A stretch of DNA of 64,000 nucleotides from assembly GCA_963514005.1 (NCBI GenBank), contig OY740808.1, positions 12,772,001 through 12,836,000 of the forward strand, read 5' to 3'. The notes under the pieces are model-generated. The model was not told the DNA's origin. It was given only the letters and a program-made list of their open reading frames with translations, and made no database searches. This document shows, piece after piece, positions 8,744 through 56,537 of this stretch. Source of the stretch: Raja brachyura. Its lineage: Eukaryota. Every line of letters begins with the position of its first letter. Positions within the stretch are counted from its first letter, which is position 1. Position numbers and translations under genes: made by a program.

Positions 8744-10225
8744 CTGGGTAGACAGGTCCGTTCGTGTTGCCTTGAATGCTCACACCATTGCCTACAACTC
8801 TGGCCTGGCATCAGGAAACATGGACGTCTAAAAGGTAGATTCATAACGACTGCGAAGGGTGGTGAAGGACGCAAAAAGGAGGTACAGGGACAAGATGGAG
8901 TCACAGATGGAGCAGCAGGACACCAGACGCCAGTGGCAGGGGCTACAGACTATAACCAACTTCCGGAGCACCCCACCCTCATCCGCAAGTGCCGGCACCT
9001 CCCAGCTGATGATCTGAACTCCTTTTACGCTCGGTTCGAGATGGGCAACACCACCCCAGGTCTGCCGACTATCGACAATACTGCCAGGGGGCTGGTTATC
9101 GAAGCTGATGGGAGGAATGAGCACACATTCTCACTGTCCGAGCACGATGTGAGGAGGGCTCTGACACGGGTGAACATGGGGAAATCTGCAGGCCCTGATG
9201 GCATCTCGGAGCGAGTACTTAAGTCCTGTGCTATGCAGCTAGCTCAGTACAATATTCAACCTCTCCCTGGACGTCCGTAGTCCCTGCCTGCTTCAAAAAA
9301 TCCACCATTGTACCTGTACCAAAGAATGCCCCCCCAGCCTGTCTGAATGACTACCGTCCGGTGGCCCTAACCTCGGTAGTCATGAAATGCTTTGGGAGGC
9401 TGGTGTTGAAACACATCTGTGCCTTCCTCCCTCGCAATATGGACCAGTTACAATTTACATACCGTCCGAATAGATCCACGGACGATGCGGTCTCCCAGGT
9501 TTTGCACACCGCTCTCTCTCATCTTGACAGCCAGAAGGGGGGCTACGTGAGGATGCTGTTCATAGTCTTTAGTTCAGCCTTCAACATGATAGTCCCCACC
9601 AGACTGGCCGAGAAGCTACTGGAATTAGGGCTCAACACCCCCGTGTGTGCCTGGGTCCTGGACTTTATCACTGCCAGGCCCCAGGTAGTCAAGGTGGGAG
9701 AGATTACATCGAAGACCCTCACCCTGAGCACAGGATCCCCCCAGGGTTGCGTCCTCAGCCCCCTATTGTACTCCCTGTACACACATGACTGTGTGGCCAG
9801 GTTCAGCTCCAACTCGATAATCAAGTTTACTGATGACACCGTGGTGGTGGGCCTGATCTCAGACAATGATGAGAAGGCCTACCGGGAGGAGATAGCTGAT
9901 CTGGCACTGGTGTCAGGACAACAGCCTCCTCTTAAACATCAAAAAGATGAAGGAGCTGATCGTGGACTAGGAGGGCACATCATCCGAGGACGTACACAGA
10001 ATTGAGGATAAATGGGAATAGATAGGAATAAATAGGGTGAGCTGTTTTAAATACCTGGGAGTACACATCTCTGAGGATATGACATGGACATCACACGCTG
10101 GTGTTGTTGGTTGTTTGTTTGGGGTTTTTTTGCACAAAGTCCGAAAGCACTGCCACTTTTCATTTCACTGCACATCCCGTATGTGTATGTGATGAATAAA
10201 CTTCACTTGACTTGACTTGACTTGA
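8744..10225 (+). mobile_element. Rex1/Babar LINE (5'-truncated RT) inserted in the Tc1
   Basis: [45 protein letters not shown]; (CTTGA)n tail at 10206-10225. Confidence 0.9.
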
Positions 10226-13008: not shown

Positions 13009-13014
13009 TTTATT
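13009..13014 (-). terminator. Polyadenylation signal AATAAA of cluster 1
   Basis: About 180 nt after the stop codon; same position in all three clusters. Confidence 0.7.
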
Positions 13015-13192: not shown

Positions 13193-13515
13193 TCAGATAC
13201 AACTGGATCTCATGATATTTGTCTTCAGCGGGTTTGACTGAGTCTCGTGTTTAACCACACAGGAGTAAAGCTCGTGTAAGTTCCACTCTGAGGCTGTCAG
13301 AGTCAGGTAACTGCTGAGACTGAACGTGTTGTCCTTGTCCTGCTGGGTCGGGCTGGTCTCAACGCCGCTATTTTTTGCACCGCCGTCGACGCTCCACTCA
13401 ACGGCCACCGAGCCCGGATTAAAGCCGTTCACCAAACAAACCAGGGTGGCGGTGCCCTTTGAGCTAACTTCATCGGCTGAAGGCGGAAGGACCGTCACGA
13501 TCGGTGCCCGAGGAT
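13193..13515 (-). CDS. IgL cluster 1 constant exon (lambda/type II-like C1 domain)
   Basis: VTVLPPS..ATLVCLVNGFNPG..EW..SLSSYLTL..W..YSCVVKH..RSSCI*, with a penultimate Cys for the H-L bond; CAG acceptor at 13518-13516. Confidence 0.95.
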
Positions 13516-15247
13516 CTGTTTAATAAGAAGTCACATTTAATTAGAGAAATGCTGCCGTTGAGATATGATTATTTTCCGAAAATACATCTCATGAAAGCTT
13601 TTATTCATTTGTAGAAATAAGTCGTTTTATTCTCGACCTATTTCAAACCATTATAATGTGAGTTTTTTTTCAATTGGGTGAACAATAAATAAAGTACGTG
13701 AAAGCAACTAGTATGGATCCTGTCTACCCGATGCATAAACTCCGGGAAAGCTCATATGATAGATCATGGCGGCTCTATTTTATAAAACTGAATACATTAT
13801 TATAACTTGTATAATGTTCATTTTACTACACAGCTCGGGCTTTACATTTATATAAATATATCAGCAGCTATAAACGATTCGCTAACGCGAAATTTATAAT
13901 AACAGATTTCAACGTATTTAATTGTCGGCACCCATTGAGATGGAGGATGACGCTATTTAGTTTCGGCAAAATTATATAAAAACTAGTCTTCGAAAGCCAC
14001 GGTTGCCGATTGGCAGATGTCGTTTACAAGCAAGGATGGAATTGTAGTTCGAATGTTCATTTATATTTGAAATGCACTGCTGCTTCCACGAAAGGCTGCT
14101 CTACTCATTAAACAAAATATCTGAAGGAAATGTGCGAATCTTTCTTTTCGCATTTCGCATTTTGATATCCTTGTTTAAACCCGTCAACCGAAATTTTGAC
14201 AGTGTTGAATATTAACGTTGCTGACCCCCCGTTACCCAAGCAATTTCCTTTCATATCTGGACAATCACTGCGAATTTTTCCGCAATATATTGGACGATCC
14301 TATTCCATGCAACTTCATTTCTACATCAACCCTCATCCAATTGACGATTTCAAAATCCGAGAGAAATTACACCATTCGCATTGGGAAGTACACGATCATT
14401 ATTGGACGGGAAAAACTAGAAAATTGAAGATTTGCATCACTTTTTCGAGTACATTAAATTCATGGTGCGGCCCTAAGTAATTCTGTGAACTGTAAAAACA
14501 TATGTTGTTTAGAATCGCAGCTGTGCGATTTCTAATCTAATATTGACGCTCTGAGGGTTAGTCTTGCTCGAGCCAATGGTTGTTTTGAAATGCTTTGAGG
14601 GCGGAATATGACTCTGATCTGTGCAAACAATTAAGCACATTTTTTTCATCGTATTATATACATTATTTTCAAGCAATATCTGCATTAAGATAAAAAGAAA
14701 ATAGCGCGCTGTCCGAAGGATATATTTTACTTACCGCCAATACCCAGCCTCGTTCCTTTACCGAAATATAAACCACTATCCCATTTGGCACAGTAATAGT
14801 CAGCAGCATCCACCGATTGAACGCTAGATATTGCGAATGTTACAGAGCTGCCAGACACCGAGATGGAAAAACGGTCCGGAATGTCCGTGCCTTTATAAAT
14901 GGTGCTGCCGGAATAATAGCCGAATAGATACTTGGGAGTTTTGCCAGGAATCTGTTGGTACCACGAGACATAGTTAGCGCCTGAACTGGAGCCCGATATG
15001 GTACAGGATATTTGTATTTTCTGTCCCGTAGAGGTGGACATCGAAGGCGGCTGACTCACTGTAACTGCCGCGCTTAAGTCTGAAATACCAGGGAAAAAAA
15101 GAAAATTGTTCAGTTTGTTGAAGTGTGGGAGATAACCCCAAATTAATGGTGAACAGAAATAAGTATAATGTCCAGGAAAGTAAAATACTCACAAACTGCG
15201 CAAAAAACCAACGCACCGACCACACGGATCCAATAAGGCATTTTCAT
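13193..15247 (-). CDS. IGL: Ig light chain gene, cluster 1 (leader + germline-joined VJ + lambda-type C); exons 15247-15193, 15079-14735, 13515-13193
   Basis: Spliced ORF MKMPYWIRVVGALVFCAV/YLSAAVTVSQPPS...YYCAKWDSGLYFGKGTRLGIG/DPRAPIVTVLPPS...RSSCI*. Both introns are phase 1 with GTGAGT or GTAAGT donors and CAG acceptors; no stops or frameshifts. Confidence 0.95.
14735..15079 (-). CDS. IgL cluster 1 germline-joined VJ exon
   Basis: V-set motifs ISC, WYQQ and DAADYYC run in frame into the J motif FGKGTRL; GTAAGT donor at 14734; no RSS between V and J. Confidence 0.95.
15193..15247 (-). CDS. IgL cluster 1 leader (signal peptide) exon
   Basis: ATG at 15247, 55 nt encoding MKMPYWIRVVGALVFCAV, followed by a GTGAGT donor. 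Confidence 0.88.
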
Positions 15248-15480
15248 TAACCGACTGAACTCCGATGGGGCGGCAGTTTCCAGGGCGAGTGGCGTGTAAT
15301 CTTGCTCTCTGGCTCTCTTTATAAATGGAATGACGAGATGTCACCGTGTGTTTATCTCTCCAAACCAATCAAACCGGTATGCTCGTCGAAGCCAATCAGA
15401 AATTGCCAGATTCTTCCTCAAAATATTCGCCACTGTGAAACATGCAGGTCTTATTTTAGAGATTTGTATTTCTAAAAAGC
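15248..15480 (-). promoter_or_regulatory. IgL cluster 1 promoter
   Basis: On the sense strand: TATAAA (15323-15318), CRE-like GGTGACATCT (15345-15336), two inverted CCAAT boxes (ATTGG at 15369-15365 and 15396-15392). Only a 7/8 octamer variant (ATTTGTAT, + strand 15462-15469). Confidence 0.65.
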
Positions 15481-28646: not shown

Positions 28647-28969
28647 TCAGATGCAGCTGGATCTCGTGATTGTTGTCTTCAGCGGGTTTGACTGAGTCTG
28701 GTGTTTAACCACACAGGAGTAAAGCTCGTGTAAGTTCCAGTCTGAGGCTGGCAGAGTCAGGTAACTGCTGAGACTGAACGTGTTGTCTTTATCCTGCTGG
28801 ATCGGGCTGGTCTCAACGCCGCTATTCTTTGCACCGCCGTCGACGCTCCACTCAACGTCCACCGAGCCCGGATTAAACCCGTTCACCAAACACACCAGGG
28901 TGGCGGTGCCCTTTGAGCTAACTTCATCGGCTGAAGGCGGGAGGACCGTCACAATCGGTGCCCGAGGAT
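28647..28969 (-). CDS. IgL cluster 2 constant exon
   Basis: ORF 28647..28952, C1-set domain, about 7 aa different from cluster 1 C. Confidence 0.95.
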
Positions 28970-30504
28970 CTGTTCAATAAGAAGTCACATTTCATTGGAT
29001 AATTGCTGTCGTTGGGATATCATTATTTGCCAAAAATACATCTCATTAAAGCACTCATTTATTCATTTTTGGAAATAAGTCGTTTTATTCTCGACTTATT
29101 TCAAACCATTACAGTGTGTTTTTTTTAAATTGGGTAAACAGTAAATAAAGTACGTGAGAGCAACCAGAATAGTTAATTTTCTGTCTACCCTATACGTAAA
29201 CTCCGGGAAGCCATATGTGATAGATCATGGCTGCACTATTTTACAAAACTGAATACATTATTGTAACTTTTATAATGTTCATTTTACTACACATCTCCGG
29301 CTTTACATTTATTTAAATATATCAGCAGATATAAACGATTCGCGGTCGTTAAATTTATAATAACAGATTTAAACTTATTTAATTGTCGGCACCCTTTGAG
29401 ATGGACGGTGACGCTATTTAAGTTCTGCAAAAATATATGGAAACTAGTCTTCGAAAGCCACGGTTGCCGATTCGCAGATATAGTTCACAAGCAATGATGA
29501 CATAGTAGTTCGAATGTATATTTATATTTGAAATGCATTTGAAATATATTTGGATGCGTCCACGAATGGCTGCTCTTCGTCTTAAACAACATTTCTGAAG
29601 AAAATGTGCGAAACTTTATCCTTTCGCATTTCACATATTGATATCCTAGTTTCACCCGGCAACCGGATTTTTGACAGTGTTGAATATTAACGTTGGTAAC
29701 CCTCCGTTACCCAAGCAATTTCCTTTCATATCTGGACAATCACTGCGAATATTTCCGCAATTCATTGTACGAAGCTCAAGTCAAATCATTAGCTCGCTTT
29801 CTCAGTAATTTCACTGAGTTACGTCCAAGTGAACTCGGAACATCTGTAGAGCAAAATCGCACTATCTGCACTGAAATACAGCTGGCCCAATCAAAGAATA
29901 ATGTGAATCCACGACATTAAATCAAGCAATATCTGCATTAAAATGAAATGAAAGCAGCGCGCTGTCCGATGAATATATTTTACTTACCGCCAATACCCAG
30001 CCTCGTTCCTTTACCGAAATGTATACCACTATCCCATTTGGCACAGTAATAGTCCGCAGCATCCACCGATTGAACGCTAGATATTGCGAATATTGCAGTG
30101 CTGCCTGACACCGAGATGGAAAAACGGTCTGGAATGTCCGTGCCTTTATAAATGCTGCCGGATTCATAGTAGAATAGATACTTGGGAGTTTTGCCAGGAA
30201 TCTGTTGGTACCACGAGACATAGTTAGCGCCTGAACTCGAACCCGATATGGTACAGGATATTTGTAGTTTCTGTCCCGTAGAGGTGGACATCGAAGGCGG
30301 CTGACTTACTGTAACTGCCGCGCTCAAGTCTGAGAAAAGAGAAATATCAGAAAAAAAGAAAATTGTTAAGTTTGTTGAAGTGTGGGAGATAACCCCAAAT
30401 TAATGGTGAACAGAAATAAGCATGATGTCCGGGAAAGTAAAATACTCACAAACTGCGCAACACACCAACGCACCGACCACACGGATCCAATACGACATTT
30501 TCAT
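28647..30504 (-). CDS. IGL: Ig light chain gene, cluster 2; exons 30504-30450, 30329-29988, 28969-28647
   Basis: Spliced ORF MKMSYWIRVVGALVCCAV/YLSAAVTVSQPPS...YYCAKWDSGIHFGKGTRLGIG/DPRAPIVTVLPPS...RSSCI*; intact splice sites and frame. Confidence 0.95.
29988..30329 (-). CDS. IgL cluster 2 germline-joined VJ exon
   Basis: ORF 29980..30327; V motifs continuous with FGKGTRL; CDR2 one codon shorter than in clusters 1 and 3. Confidence 0.95.
30450..30504 (-). CDS. IgL cluster 2 leader exon
   Basis: 55 nt from ATG to a GTGAGT donor; hydrophobic signal peptide. Confidence 0.88.
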
Positions 30505-37015: not shown

Positions 37016-39644
37016 CCATTGGAGAAATGGCGGCGCGCACATTCGCAGCGGCTTGGAGCTCTTCCTCTAGTTGCAGGTTTTTAGTGTTTTTCGTTTCTTT
37101 TTAAATGTTTACTTTCTGCACTGTGAGCCTTTCCCTTCAAATGGGAATGAACATAACTTATAACTGACTGCACATCTTGAATATTCGGAGTACAAACTAC
37201 ATCCCACCCCCTCCATCTGCTATATCGGAGGAGCTGCTCCGCACAGTGGTGCCTGCCTGGATAACGAGCCGAAGCAGCAAGCGGGGCAGACGGAGACGGA
37301 GACGGGAGAGGAAGCAAAAGCGGGGCAAGCGGGCCGGCATCCATGCTAGGCTAAGGAGCTCACCGGACCGGCCAGCTTTGCCTAGCCTGTTTATAGCGAA
37401 CGCCCAGTCCATTGTCAACAAGATCGACCAACTCAGACAGATGCTTTACTCAAACAGGATAAGTAGCTGTGCTTTCTTCTTCACCGAAACCTGGCTGAAT
37501 CCGAACATCCCTGACGCTGCTATTGAGCTAGCAGGCCGGACTGTTTATCGAGCAGACCGAACAGCTGACTCCGGTAAGGATAAAGGCGGTGGTGTGTGCA
37601 TATATGTGTGTAACTCATGGTGCACCACCACTGACATTGTTGAGACTTTTTTCTCCCCGGACTTGGAGTTTATTACAGTGAAATGCAGACCATTTTATCT
37701 GCCAAGGGAGTTTACAGTGGTGTTCCTCGCTGCTGTTTACATACCACCGCAAGCTAACGCTAAGCTAGCGCTGGCTAGTCTGCATGATGCTATCCACAAG
37801 CTGAAAAACAACCACCCAGATGGCGTGTTTTTAATAGCAGGAGACTTCAATCACGCCAAGCTGAAGACGGTATTGCCAACATTTCACCAGTTTATTGATT
37901 TTCCGACCAGAGAAAACAATATCTTGGACCAGGTCTACTGCAACATTACCAGGGGCTACAAAGCGTCCCCCTGTCCCCATCTTGGCCGATACGATCACAT
38001 CAGTCTGTACTTAACACCTGCATACAGACCCCTCATTGCAAGAACAAAGCCAACAGTTCGCCATCGTGGTCTGGCCAGAAGGAGCCATGGACAGGGTACA
38101 GAACTGCTTTGAGTATACTGATTGGGACATTTTTAAACAGGCTGCCACTCACAACCACACAGACCTCAACACCTACACCTGATCAGTATTGGATTACATC
38201 ACCTTCTGTATGAACAGTGTCACCACACAGAGGACAATACTGACACTCCCCAACCATAAACCATGGATGAATGGCGCCGTAACTGGCCTGCTGAAGGCCC
38301 GGGATGCAGCTTTCCACTCAGGTGATGCAGAGGTCTACAGAACAGCAAGGTCCAGTCTGAGGAAGGGCATCAGGGAAGCAAAGCACCGCTACACGAAGCG
38401 CATCGAGGAGCATTTTAACAGCTCAGACTCTCGACACGTGTGGCAGGGCATCAGAACCATCACCGGCTACAACAGCTCCACACACGCACAAAGCTCATCC
38501 CTCCCTGACGACCTGAACTGTTTTTTTGCCAGGTTTGACTGCGCCGACAGCAGTGACGACATATGGGCACAGCAGGGACCCTCACCACCGGTGCTGACTC
38601 CACGACGTGAGACAGACCCTGCAGCACATCAATCCCAACAAGGCCACCGGACCTGATGGAGTACCAGGGTGGGTTCTGAAGCACTGTGCAGGGGAGCTGA
38701 CTGCTGTGCTCACGGACCTGTTTAACACCTCCCTGAGGCAGGCCTCCATCCCCACATGCCTCAAGACAGCCACAATCATCCCTGTGCCAAAACAATCAAC
38801 CATCAGATCCCTCAACGACTATCGGCCAGTGGCGCTGACACCGGTGGTGATGAAGTGCTTCGAACGTCTGGTACTGGGACACTTGAAGAACAGCATCCCC
38901 TCCTCCTAAGACTACCATTAATTTGCCTATAGGGCAAACAGGTTGACGGAGGATGCAGTGTCACTGGCCCTCCACTCCACCCTGACACATCTTGACCAGC
39001 GGGACAGTTATGTGCGGATGCTATTCATAGATTATAGCTCCGCCTTTAACACCACCCCCTCCCCCCATAAACTAATCACCAAGCTAGACCACCTGGGCCA
39101 CAACAAACACCTGAGCAGCTGGGTCCTGGACTTTCTCACCGGCCGACCACAGACTGTGTGCATGGGGAGGCAGGTCTCCTCCAGCATCACCCTGAACATC
39201 GGTGCACCACAGGGCTGTGTGTTGAGCACCTTCCTCTTCTCCCTCTACACTCTCGACTGCCAGCCCACCCACGAGGCCAACGGCACACTAAAGTTTGTAG
39301 ATGACACCTTCGTGGTAGGCAGGATCACGAGTAACAAAGAGGCCGCCTACAGGACAGAGGTAGAGAACCTGGTGAGTTGGACCCGTGAGAACAACCTGAT
39401 CCTCAACGCAGTAAAAACAAAGGAGATGATCCTGGACTTCAGGAGGAGACCAAGGACCCTGGTCCATCAGCCCATCACCATTAATGGCGAGACAGTGGAG
39501 GGTGTGCAGCACATCAGGTACCTCGGGGTCAACATCAGTCATGACCAACATCACGGCGACGGCCAAGAAAGGACTCCAAAGGCTTCACTTCCTGAGGTGC
39601 TTGAAGAGGGCATTGGAGGACTGCTCCAACAAACTTTCGTTGTC
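37016..39644 (+). mobile_element. Near full-length Rex1/Babar LINE (inner copy): APE endonuclease plus RT, with frameshifts and stops
   Basis: ORF 37177..38112 with ANAQS, TETWL, GGGVCIYV, AGDFN, ILDQVY and DH motifs; downstream [23 protein letters not shown]. Confidence 0.9.
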
Positions 39645-39774
39645 NNNNNNNNNNNNNNNNNNNNNNNNNNNNNNNNNNNNNNNNNNNNNNNNNNNNNNNN
39701 NNNNNNNNNNNNNNNNNNNNNNNNNNNNNNNNNNNNNNNNNNNNNNNNNNNNNNNNNNNNNNNNNNNNNNNNNN
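39645..39774. other. Assembly gap (130 N)
   Basis: Run of N. Confidence 1.
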
Positions 39775-40909
39775 GTGTCATCCCCTCCAAGCTGGTTACC
39801 AAACTCGCAAAACTGGGTCTCTGTGCATCCCTCTGCAATTGGATCCTCCACTTCCTCATTCACAGACCACAGTCTGTTTGTATTGGTGGAAATATGTCAG
39901 ACTCGATAACAATCAGCACGGGAGCACCGCAAGGCTGCGTGCTCAGCCCCTCTGCTGTACTCACTCTATACTCATGACTGCATAGCCGGTCATGGTGCGA
40001 ACTCCATCATCAAGTTCGCTGTTGTGGGATGTATCACTGTCAGAGTCAGAGTCAGAGCATAGAAGAGAGATCGAGCAACTGTCCATCGGGTGCCAGCACT
40101 ATAACCTGGCCCTCGACACAAGCAAAACCAAGGAACTGATCGTGGACTTTGGAAGGAGTAGGATGGGGACCCACAATCCCGTTTATATCAACGCGTCGAT
40201 GGTTGAAAGGGTCTAGAGCTTCAAATTCCTGGGTGTGCACATCTCTGAAGATCTTTCCTGGTCCGAGAACACTGATGCAATTATCAAGAAAGCACATCGG
40301 CGCCTCTACTTCCTGAGAAGATTACGGAGAGTCAGTTTGTCAAGGAGGACTCTGTCTAACCTCTACCGGTGCACAGTAGAGAGCATGCTCACCAGTTGCA
40401 TCATGGCTTGGTTCGGCAACCTGAGCGCCCTGGAGAGGAAAAGACTACAGAAAGTAGTAAGCACTGCCCAGTCCATCATCGGCTCTGACCTTCCTTCCAT
40501 GGAGGGGATTTATCGCAGTCGCTGCCTCTAAAAGGCTGGCAGTATCATCAAAGAAGCCACACCATCCTGGTCACACACTCATCTCCCTGCTACCTTCAGG
40601 TAGAAGCCTGAAGACTGCAACGACCAGGTTCAGGAATAGCTACTTCCCCACAGCCATCAGGCTATTAACCTGGCTCGGGCAAAACTCTGAACATTAATAA
40701 CCCATTATCTGTTATTTGCACTTTATAAGTTCATTTATTAATGTGTGTATATATTTATATAATGGTATATGGACACACTGATCTGTTTTGTAGTCAATGC
40801 CTACTATGTTCTGTTGTGCTGAAGCAAAACAAGAATTGCATTGTCCTATCAGAGACACATGACAATAAAGTCACTTGCACTTGAACTTGAACTAAATAAC
40901 TATAAACCG

Positions 40910-51552: not shown

Positions 51553-51875
51553 TCAGATACAGCTGGATCTCATGATAGTTGTCTTCAGTGGGTTTGCCTG
51601 AGTCTGGTGTTTAACCACACATGAGTAAAGCTCGTGTAAGTTCCACTCTGAGGCTGTCAGAGTCAGGTAACTGCTGAGACTGAACGTGTTGTCCTTATCC
51701 TGCTGGATCGGGCTGGTCTCAACGCCGCTATTTTTTACACCGCCGTCGACGCTCCACTCAACGGCCACCGATCCCGGATTAAAGCCGTTCACCAAGCACA
51801 CCAGGGTGGCGGTGTCCATTGAGGTAACTTCATTGGCTGAAGGCGGGAGGACCGTCACGATCGGTGCCCGAGGAT
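51553..51875 (-). CDS. IgL cluster 3 constant exon
   Basis: ORF 51553..51858, C1-set domain ending RSSCI*. Confidence 0.95.
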
Positions 51876-53423
51876 CTGTTTAATAAGAAGTCACATTTTA
51901 GTGGAGAAATGCTGTCGTCTGAAAATGCTGAAAATACATCTCATTAAAGCACACATTTATTCATTTATAGAAATGTCCTTTTATTCCCGACCTATTTCCA
52001 ACCATTATAGTAGGGGTTTTTTTAATTGGTTGAACAATAAATAAAGTACGTGAAAGCAACTAGAATAGATCCTGTCGGCCCTTTGCATTAACTCCGGGAA
52101 AACATCAGTGATAGATCGTGGCTGCTCTATTTTATAACTCTGAATACATTATTATAACTTTTATAATGTTCATTTTACTACACATCTTGGACTTTACATT
52201 TATATCAATATATCAGCAGATATAAACGATTCGCGGCAGCGAAATTTATAATAACAGATTTCAACTTATTGTCGGCACACATTGAGACGGAGGGTGACGC
52301 TATTTAAGTTCGGCAAAAATATAAGGAAACTAGTCTTCGAAAGCCACGGTCACCGATTCGCAGGTGGCGTTCACAAGCAAGGATGACATCGCAGTTCGAA
52401 TGTACATTTGTATTTGAAGTGCACTGCTGCGTCTACGAAAGCTGCTCTACGTATTAAACAACATTTCTGAAGGAACAGTGCGAAACTTTCTCCTTTCGCA
52501 TTTCGCATTTCGATATCCTTGTTAAACCCGTCAACCGGAATTTTGACTGTGTTGACTATTAACGTTGCTGCCAAGATCCAAGTAGCTACAATCCTTAGCG
52601 AGGTAATTCACTCAAAGTCGCTACAGTCCCGTGGTATCCTGGTCACAAAATATGTTTGTTGAGAAATTGATTGATTGTTCGTCTGTAAAAGCTCAAGACA
52701 AATCATTAGCTCGCTTTTGCAGTCATTTCACTAAGTTATGTCCAAGTGAACTCGGAACAACTGTATAGCAAGACCGCACTATCTGCACTGAAATGCAGCT
52801 GGCCGGATCAAGTGCAATGTGAACTTACGGCATGAAATCAAGCAATATCTGCATTAAAAGAAAAAGAAAACTGCGCGCTGCCCGAAGAATATATTTTACT
52901 TACCGCCAATACCCAGCCTCGTTCCTCTACCAAAAAAATAACCAGCTTCCCATTTGGCACAGTAATAGTCCGCAGCATCTTCCGGTTGAACGTTCGATAT
53001 TTGTAATGTTCCCGTGTTGCCTGACTTTGACGGGGAGAAACGGTCTGGAACGTCCGTGCCTTTTTCAATGCTGCCACTTGAATGATAGTAGAATAGATAC
53101 TTGGGAGTTTTGCCAGGAATCTGTTGGTACCAGGAGGTATATTTTACGCCTGAACTGGAACCCGATATGGTACAGGATATTTGCATTGTCTGTCCCGTAG
53201 AGGTGGACATCGAAGGCGGCTGACTTACTGTAACTGCTGCGCTTAAGTCTGAGAAAAGAGAAATATCAGAAAAAAAGAAAATAGTTAAGTTTGTTGAAGT
53301 GATGGAGATACCCCCAAATTAATGGTGAACAGAAATAAGTATAATGTCCAGGAATGTAAAATACTCACAAACTGCGCAAAAAACCAACGCACCGACCACA
53401 CGGATCCAATACGACATTTTCAT
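51553..53423 (-). CDS. IGL: Ig light chain gene, cluster 3; exons 53423-53369, 53248-52904, 51875-51553
   Basis: Spliced ORF MKMSYWIRVVGALVFCAV/YLSAAVTVSQPPS...YYCAKWEAGYFFGRGTRLGIG/DPRAPIVTVLPPS...RSSCI*; intact. Confidence 0.95.
52904..53248 (-). CDS. IgL cluster 3 germline-joined VJ exon
   Basis: ORF 52896..53210; V motifs continuous with FGRGTRL; FR3 reads RFSPSKSGNTGTLQISNVQPEDAADYYC. Confidence 0.95.
53369..53423 (-). CDS. IgL cluster 3 leader exon
   Basis: 55 nt from ATG to a GTGAGT donor. Confidence 0.88.
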
Positions 53424-54966: not shown

Positions 54967-56537
54967 GATGGGCTGCATCACAGAGTACTTAAGGAAGTAG
55001 CTCCGGAAATAGTGGATGCGTTGGTGATAATCTTTCAAAACTCTTTAGATTCTTGAGTAGTTCCTGAGGATTGGCGGGTAGCAAACGTAACCCCTCTTTT
55101 TAAGAAGGGAGGGAGAGAGAAAACGGGGAATTACAGACCAGTTAGTCTAACATCGGTAGTGGCGAAACTGCTAGAGTCAGTTATTAAAGATGGGATAGCA
55201 GCATATTTGGAAAGTGGTGAAATCATTCGACAAAGTCAGCATGGATTTACGAAAGGTAAATCATGTCTGACGAATCTTGTGGAATTTTTCGAGGATGTAA
55301 CTAGTAGCGTGGATAAGGGAGAACCAGTGGATGTGGTGTATCTGGACTTCCAGAAGGCTTTCGACAAGGTCCCACATAAGAGATTAGTATACAAACTTAA
55401 AGCATATGGCATTGGGGGTTCAGTATTGATGTGGATAGACAACTGGCTGGCAAACAGGAAGCAAAGAGCAGGAGTAAACGGGTCCTTTTCACAATGGCAG
55501 GCAGTGACTAGTGGGGTACCGCAAGGCTCAGTGCTGGGACCCCAGCTATTTACAATATATATTAATGATCTGGATGAGGGAATTGAAGGCAATATCTGCA
55601 AGTTTGCGGATGACACTAAGCTGGGGGCAGTGTTAGCTGTGAGGAGGATGCTAGGAGACTGCAAGGTGACTTGGATAGACTGGGTGAGTGGGCAAATTTT
55701 TGGCAGATGCAGTATAATGTGGATAAATGTGAGGTTATCCACTTTGGTGGCAAAAACAGGAAAGCAGACTATTATCTAAATGGTGGCCGATTAGGAAAAG
55801 GGGAGATGCTGCGAGACCTGGGTGTCATGGTACACCAGTCATTGAAAGTAGGCATGCAGCTGCAGCAGGCAGTGAAGAAAGCGAATGGTATGTTAGCTTT
55901 CATAGCAAATGTATTTGAGTATAGGAGCAGGGACGTTCTACTTCAGTTGTACAGGGCCTTGGTGAGACCACACCTGGAGTATCGCATACAGTTTTGGTCT
56001 CCAAATCTGAGGAAGGACATTATTGCCATAGAGGGAGTGCAGAGAAGGTTCACCAGACTGATTCCTGTGATGTCAGGACTGTCTTATGAAGAAAGACTGG
56101 ATAGACTCGGTTTATACTCTCTAGAATTTAGGAGATTGAGAGGGGATCTTATCGAAACTTACAAAATTCTTAAGGGGTTGGACAGGCTAGATGCAGGAAG
56201 ATTGTTCCCAATGTTTGGGAAGTCCAGGACAAGGGGTCACAGCTTAAGGATAAGGGGAAACTCCTTTAAGACCGAAATGAGAAAGATTTTTTTCACACAG
56301 AGAGTGATGAGTCTCTGAAACTCTCTGCCACAGAGGGTAGTTGAGGCCAGTTCATTGGCTATGTTTAAGAGGGAGTTATATGTGGCTCTTGTGGCTAATG
56401 GGATCAAAGAGTATGGAGAGAAGGCAGGTATGGGATACTGAGTTGGATGAACAGCCATGATCATATTGAATGGCAGTGCAGGCTCGAAGGACCGAATGGC
56501 CTACTCCTGCACCTAATTTCTATGTTACTATGTTTCT
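54967..56537 (+). mobile_element. Young CR1 LINE, 5'-truncated, RT nearly intact
   Basis: ORFs 55159..55779 and 55671..56318 with [45 protein letters not shown]; one frameshift at ~55625; 8-mer tail. Confidence 0.95.

Follow-up and report, generated by a model that had tools for sequence, protein, structure and literature searches.

Light-chain genes of the lambda class in cartilaginous fish (type II, or NS3) undergo somatic hypermutation. They are germline-joined in all species studied, according to passages of two reviews (PMC5192425, PMC4279169), and the relevant passages of PMC5985310 separate the light-chain isotypes by CDR1 length (lambda 3-9, lambda-2 5-7, sigma 4-7, sigma-2 8) and CDR2 length (kappa 3, lambda 3-7, lambda-2 2-3, sigma 9-10, sigma-2 7). 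The same passages place lambda next to IFT81 in sterlet and gar, and describe lambda-2 of ray-finned fish as a lambda-related isotype with short CDR1 and CDR2 and 1-2 genes per species, which in gar lies on a chromosome other than the IFT81-linked lambda chromosome and which did not come to light in cartilaginous fish, though it may yet turn up. In tetrapods, HIRA and MRPL40 are flanking markers of the Ig-lambda locus (PMC4762898, in the part covered). Here, we describe three light-chain genes in a 64,000-nucleotide stretch of Raja brachyura DNA (GCA_963514005.1, contig OY740808.1, forward-strand positions 12,772,001 to 12,836,000; hereafter the window, with positions counted from its first letter). 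These are very probably intact, germline-joined lambda (type II) genes whose V exon belongs to a second V-lambda family, which has a CDR2 of 6-8 residues, is present in sharks as well as rays and is probably ancient. In these fish, the lambda isotype would then combine a single shared C domain with two V families of old standing.

All three genes are intact leader-VJ-C miniclusters on the minus strand, each with V and J already fused, GT..AG introns and an open frame (240, 239 and 240 aa for clusters 1, 2 and 3), and Pfam recognizes a V-set and a C1-set domain in the window gene. Cluster 1 comprises a leader exon with two in-frame ATGs at 15247 and 15241 (15193..15247), a leader intron of 113 nt (15080..15192), the V-set VJ exon (14735..15079), a J-C intron of 1219 nt (13516..14734) and a lambda (type II) C1-set exon running to the stop codon (13193..13515), with a polyA-like signal at 13014. 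The corresponding leader, VJ and C exons are at 30450..30504, 29988..30329 and 28647..28969 in cluster 2, and at 53369..53423, 52904..53248 and 51553..51875 in cluster 3. An earlier note, made from the letters of this DNA alone, had singled out 14735..15079 for an unusually long CDR2 on a lambda-type C domain; in the gene model this stretch is exactly the VJ exon, and the CDR2-region and C-domain motifs quoted there are present in the sequence. From the W of WYQQ to the F of DRF, the span is 32, 31 and 32 aa in clusters 1, 2 and 3, as the note had counted for the first two. By IMGT-style count CDR2 has 7, 6 and 7 residues and CDR3 has 8 in all three clusters; cluster 1 has a CDR1 of 8, a CDR2 of 7 (14898..14918, placed by sequence and span count) and a germline-fixed CDR3 (14766..14789). 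The 28-aa span cited for comparison holds in 10 of 10 kappa rows (CDR2 of 3) and 12 of 12 short-CDR2 tetrapod lambda rows. As for its occurrence elsewhere, the long spacing recurs in long-CDR2 tetrapod lambda, as proposed, and also in sigma-2 (32), but not in sigma, where the span is 34 and CDR2 is 9. With a CDR1 of 8 and a CDR2 of 6-7, the window genes fall within the published lambda range and outside those of sigma (either CDR) and kappa (CDR2).

A scan of the window for recombination signal sequences (RSS) found none close to the V exon of any cluster; the sole RSS-like match, at 37125, is distant from every V. The V exon of cluster 3 is patchy and has diverged from clusters 1 and 2 in its 3' half, with several 30-nt blocks (FR3, CDR3 and J) only 60-73% like cluster 1 and most others 87-100% alike. 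This is not an assembly error, because a DNA-like sequencing run carries the diverged part with one difference in 218 nt; the pattern may stem from gene conversion or from the sister genes having changed faster. Between the clusters (for example 9223-10002, 37168-39974 and 55057-56315), translations read by eye contain degraded frames of LINE-like reverse transcriptases and endonucleases, alongside other repeats.

In the whole genome (2.7 Gb), the three clusters are part of a block of 19 long-CDR2 genes on contig C30, all on the minus strand at 12.54-12.93 Mb and 14-33 kb apart, and seven short-CDR2 lambda genes lie on the plus strand of the same contig at 11.87-11.99 Mb. Both counts are lower bounds, by which the long-CDR2 form makes up the majority (19 of 26) of the lambda clusters in this genome. 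The W-to-F span is 31-33 in all 18 measurable long genes (one frameshifted gene was left out) and 27-28 in 7/7 short genes, and since 18 of 18 sister genes on the same strand share it, the long span is not a chance feature of one gene. The two blocks face one another across a gene of the MRP-L28 family (PF09812, which we take to be MRPL40) at 12.41 Mb and HIRA at 12.48-12.50 Mb; the first long cluster, with its C exon at 12.54 Mb, is about 40 kb from this pair. IFT81 lies 11 Mb away on this contig, which also carries MIF-family and SNF5 genes. The long-CDR2 block therefore sits at the lambda locus by HIRA/MRPL40/IFT81 synteny. Three members of the gene set are broken: FR1 of L008 contains a stop codon, L019 carries a frameshift and its promoter is disrupted, and L057 consists of part of a C exon. 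Four short-CDR2 genes have RSS-like sites upstream, but these fall on the leader splice donor and were judged to be chance matches.

The proteins closest to the window genes are those of skates. Little and thorny skate RefSeq models named 'immunoglobulin lambda-1 light chain-like' (XP_055511140, XP_032899427 and others) have equal CDR lengths, and XP_055511140 is 91% identical in V and 89% in C to the window gene; the names are automatic and tell no subfamily apart. More widely, a C-domain search yielded 112 full-length chains, of which the 103 with a lambda-type C were kept and nine of sigma type dropped; with six added, the set came to 109 cartilaginous-fish chains, a sample biased towards the long family, from which the queries were taken. 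Long-CDR2 chains (span 30-33, CDR2 of 6-8 residues) account for 47/109 and short ones (span 27-29) for 62/109. The long form occurs in 17 of the 20 named genera, among them skates, rays, sawfish, sharks and a ratfish; none was seen among the retrieved Squalus, Carcharhinus and Narcine chains. A second indel agrees with the CDR2 split, the distance from F to the second Cys being 27 in 47/47 long chains and 29 in 61/62 short ones, and CDR3 is 8-9 in 46/47 long chains versus 5-12 in the short. Classical type II chains (sandbar shark AAA86749, spiny dogfish AES93017) share with the window genes their germline-joined VJ-C miniclusters, a CDR1 of 8 and a C domain 69-72% identical, and short-CDR2 genes of this genome lie in the same chromosome region. 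They differ in having a CDR2 of 3 and the short-family values just given, against 7, 27 and a fixed 8-9 here; the sandbar shark lambda cDNA matches the window V at 44% with 9 gap positions, and the window promoters are without an octamer. All seven named sandbar shark and dogfish cDNAs retrieved belong to the short family, and therefore trees built from them may miss half of the isotype.

A member from outside sharks and rays is the ratfish cDNA AAA59369 (Hydrolagus colliei), which by its neighbouring accessions appears to come from the series of Rast et al. 1994. It has the same CDR1 of 8, CDR2 of 7, F-to-C of 27 and CDR3 of 8, aligns without gaps over 108 aa at 50%, and carries a lambda-type C at 65%, although its framework identity is just 52% and its grouping with the long family is supported in one of two V trees. 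The earlier note had allowed for an already described skate or shark subfamily of the same CDR2 length: relatives of that length are indeed on record, both as annotated lambda-like chains of skates and sharks and as the ratfish cDNA, and none was found described as a subfamily. In the literature searched, with key primary papers outside its coverage, no paper was seen to divide elasmobranch lambda expressly into two V families, and the accessible parts of PMC2193156, PMC2435157, PMC9614664, PMC12227049, PMC5241823, PMC2192082 and PMC6901605 do not do so either; the portion of the elephant shark supplement PMC3964593 that was covered yielded no light-chain passage. An earlier description of the family is quite possible, and its members are already in databases, the ratfish chain in GenBank and near-identical skate genes under automatic lambda-like names.

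The V domain was suspected from the start to be unlike the usual type II V, and so it proved. Mean framework identity of the window V is highest with other long V (67%), followed by kappa (49%), short type II and tetrapod lambda (46% each) and the sigma and sigma-2 group (37%), and the range to short type II (40-51%) is no higher than that to kappa (41-55%). V trees were built from 77 columns, with the CDR1 and CDR2 columns removed, from a set from which five rows lacking an anchor had been dropped and which holds neither lambda-2 nor cartilaginous-fish kappa rows. In the 96-row tree, 25 long V and the ratfish V form one clade (95/92) and 12 short V another (100/97); both clades recur in a mixture-model tree of 51 rows (long 91/91, short 100/99), where the ratfish V is outside any supported placement. 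The first V tree is rooted on a long TCR-like row, an unreliable root that was not used for ordering events. Long V and classical type II V are unjoined in both trees, while AU tests on these 77 columns reject none of the unions tried: long with short and ratfish (p 0.60), long with ratfish (0.53), long with sigma-2 (0.34), and long with ratfish and tetrapod long-CDR2 V (0.56). To judge from the sequences, long V is a distinct family, separate from that of the short V, in line with the divergent V-lambda family proposed at the outset.

A divergent V on a familiar C domain might also be an ancient V/C chimaera, in which a V exon from another isotype was put on a lambda C, and by CDR lengths sigma-2 (type I, or sigma-cart) is the sole candidate donor. 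Its CDR1 of 8 and CDR2 of 7 are those of the long family, its genes are germline-joined in skates, and its union with long V goes unrejected in the AU test above. However, framework identity to sigma and sigma-2 is the lowest of any group (34-39%), identity in C is 45%, and sigma-2 has a different J, an F-to-C span of 29 and a CDR3 of 10. Sigma and sigma-2 V group together, apart from long V, in both trees (98/96 and 98/92), and their genes lie on contigs other than C30. In addition, leader and promoter of the long genes can be aligned with those of the short-CDR2 lambda family, in one long gene as far as the octamer site, and the V family is found on lambda C in 17 genera. A chimaera, which the earlier note had listed among its readings, is accordingly very improbable. 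Since long V has the length signature of sigma-2, CDR length alone misclassifies light chains.

The C domain had been likened to shark type II/lambda C, and the likeness is borne out: the window C shares 62-92% of its residues with cartilaginous-fish lambda C, and 38-46% with the C domains of sigma, sigma-2, kappa and tetrapod lambda, which by sequence makes cartilaginous-fish type II C its closest relative. C trees, which like the V trees hold neither lambda-2 nor cartilaginous-fish kappa rows, do not follow the V families. Long-gene C and short-gene C are interspersed and pair up within species, a single clade of all long-gene C is rejected (p-AU 1.2e-11), and long-versus-short C pairs within a species are 81-93% identical in six of six pairs; a single clade of all lambda C is not rejected (p 0.14). 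V and C histories differ, probably because C exons have been homogenised within species. The separate V and C phylogenies that the earlier note had called for are thus discordant, an outcome that it would have taken to support a chimaera, but the discordance is attributed here to that homogenisation. Long and short V are separate and their C domains intermixed by species, and therefore the window genes are best read as lambda with a second widespread V family.

Within this pattern, an 11-gene subfamily that includes the window genes (L031-L041, 12.71-12.93 Mb) has C exons 87-100% alike, which are 59-74% identical to the other lambda C of the genome and so the most diverged in it; those other C exons are 69-81% alike across V families. 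The subfamily C is a skate C sublineage, whose nearest relative beyond skates is from sawfish (75%). It is basal in both C trees, which are rooted on sigma and carry long-branch warnings; this rooting is unreliable and was not used for ordering events.

That divergence speaks for a further reading, in which the genes represent the lambda-2 so far missed in cartilaginous fish, or a sixth isotype. PMC5985310, in the passages cited above, leaves room for the former, and in the V domain the distance to short type II is as great as that to kappa. A lambda-2-like isotype had been suggested earlier, and the comparison goes against it: lambda-2 by its published description has a CDR1 of 5-7, a CDR2 of 2-3 and one or two genes per species, versus 8, 6-8 (6-7 in the window) and 19 genes here. 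The gar gene is off the IFT81-linked lambda chromosome, in contrast to the long block, which shares a contig with IFT81 and adjoins HIRA/MRPL40 and so occupies the true lambda locus, and a separate C lineage is rejected. We consider it highly unlikely that these genes are lambda-2 or a sixth isotype; the readings as a missing shark lambda-2 and as a V/C hybrid can be regarded as closed.

For the second V-lambda family, the history probably ran in three steps: an early split of long- and short-CDR2 V families, germline joining and tandem copying of each V family, and gene conversion or unequal exchange that would have kept C exons alike within species. Homogenisation of C within species would leave a distinct V on an ordinary C.

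How early the split occurred depends in part on the tetrapods. The long family may be the orthologue of tetrapod long-CDR2 V-lambda (human IGLV4/5-like, and VpreB), with the long/short split predating that of sharks and bony fish, and this reading would refine, not replace, that of a second V-lambda family. CDR2 is 7 in all 10 tetrapod long-CDR2 lambda rows (presumably of IGLV4/IGLV5-like families), the best single-domain scores beyond cartilaginous fish are to long-CDR2 lambda V (where named, of lungfish and turtle), the AU test leaves the union unrejected, and the block adjoins HIRA/MRPL40. On the other hand, no supported branch joins the long family with tetrapod long-CDR2 V in either V tree, mean framework identity is alike to tetrapod long lambda (53%), short lambda (52%) and kappa (52%), and a 7-residue CDR2, being also found in sigma-2, may be merely ancestral. 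The ratfish V, too, is as similar in framework to tetrapod long-CDR2 lambda as to the long family (mean 53%). The tetrapod genes are moreover rearranging or surrogate genes in a translocon, with a CDR1 of 7 or 9 in 9/10 rows. On this evidence orthology is a tentative and somewhat doubtful reading. If true, the division of lambda into long and short CDR2 would be as old as jawed vertebrates. The long family offers a means of testing whether light chains ancestrally had a CDR2 of 7 residues, and of tracing the origin of VpreB-like V genes.

Contigs assembled from sequencing runs of other species, guessed to be RNA, skip the J-C intron exactly in 4/4 runs (three studies), and the leader intron likewise, with the leader donor joined, in two of the four; the DNA-like run, compared to cluster 3, contains neither splice joint. 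Relatives appear to make spliced transcripts of long-CDR2 genes, the RNA nature of the runs being a guess, with none of them on record as RNA. The predicted promoter of cluster 1 (15319..15400) has two inverted CCAAT boxes and a TATA-like box, without an Ig octamer. A perfect octamer lies upstream of 7/7 short-CDR2 lambda genes versus 1/19 long-CDR2 genes (loci L001-L026), and two long genes keep a one-mismatch copy at the aligned octamer site. In the window's subfamily the octamer is lost and a second CCAAT box is found beside its site. A more far-reaching proposal combines these features: the genes would represent a second V-lambda lineage that has been overlooked, having arisen before ratfish and sharks parted and having its orthologues in VpreB and the long-CDR2 V-lambda of tetrapods, flanking HIRA/MRPL40, making up most of the lambda clusters of this genome and transcribed from mostly octamer-less promoters. 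As a whole it is possible, with the odds against it.

VJ is germline-joined, and therefore no RAG step or rearrangement is needed for expression. The long-CDR2 chain would pair with a heavy chain, and given a CDR3 fixed at 8 residues its longer CDR2, predicted to form a beta-hairpin, likely gives much of the inherited light-chain variety, to which somatic mutation may add. Among nine sister genes, CDR2 is the most variable segment (pN 0.26 versus 0.03-0.09 in the frameworks), and positive selection on it is not demonstrated, since pS is equally high (0.35, with pN not above it; 18 of 36 pairs of equal length). The predicted fold is that of a normal V domain (pLDDT 95), in which modelled strands at residues 45-50 and 56-58 flank CDR2. 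The model superposes over 109 residues on lambda Fab chains of the long-CDR2 kind such as 7rks_L (Z 19.0, rmsd 1.5) and on VpreBJ 3bj9 (Z 18.3, rmsd 1.9); these Z values tie, also with short-CDR2 chains, so the fold search does not tell the V families apart. A V-only database search gave one match in 10 candidates and nothing informative, PDB sequence searches matched mostly multi-domain scFv, and Atlas searches returned generic antibody V clusters.

Other light-chain isotypes were met in the same genome. A turtle kappa query matched only the lambda genes of contig C30 (25 matches, with 147 of 313 candidates scored), in agreement with a passage of PMC5985310 that gives kappa status in skate as undetermined. 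Loci L061 and L062 (contig C32), L027-L030 (C29) and L063 and L064 (C47) comprise two sigma genes with a V-side 12-nt RSS and germline-joined sigma-2 genes, the latter in two divergent groups on two contigs.
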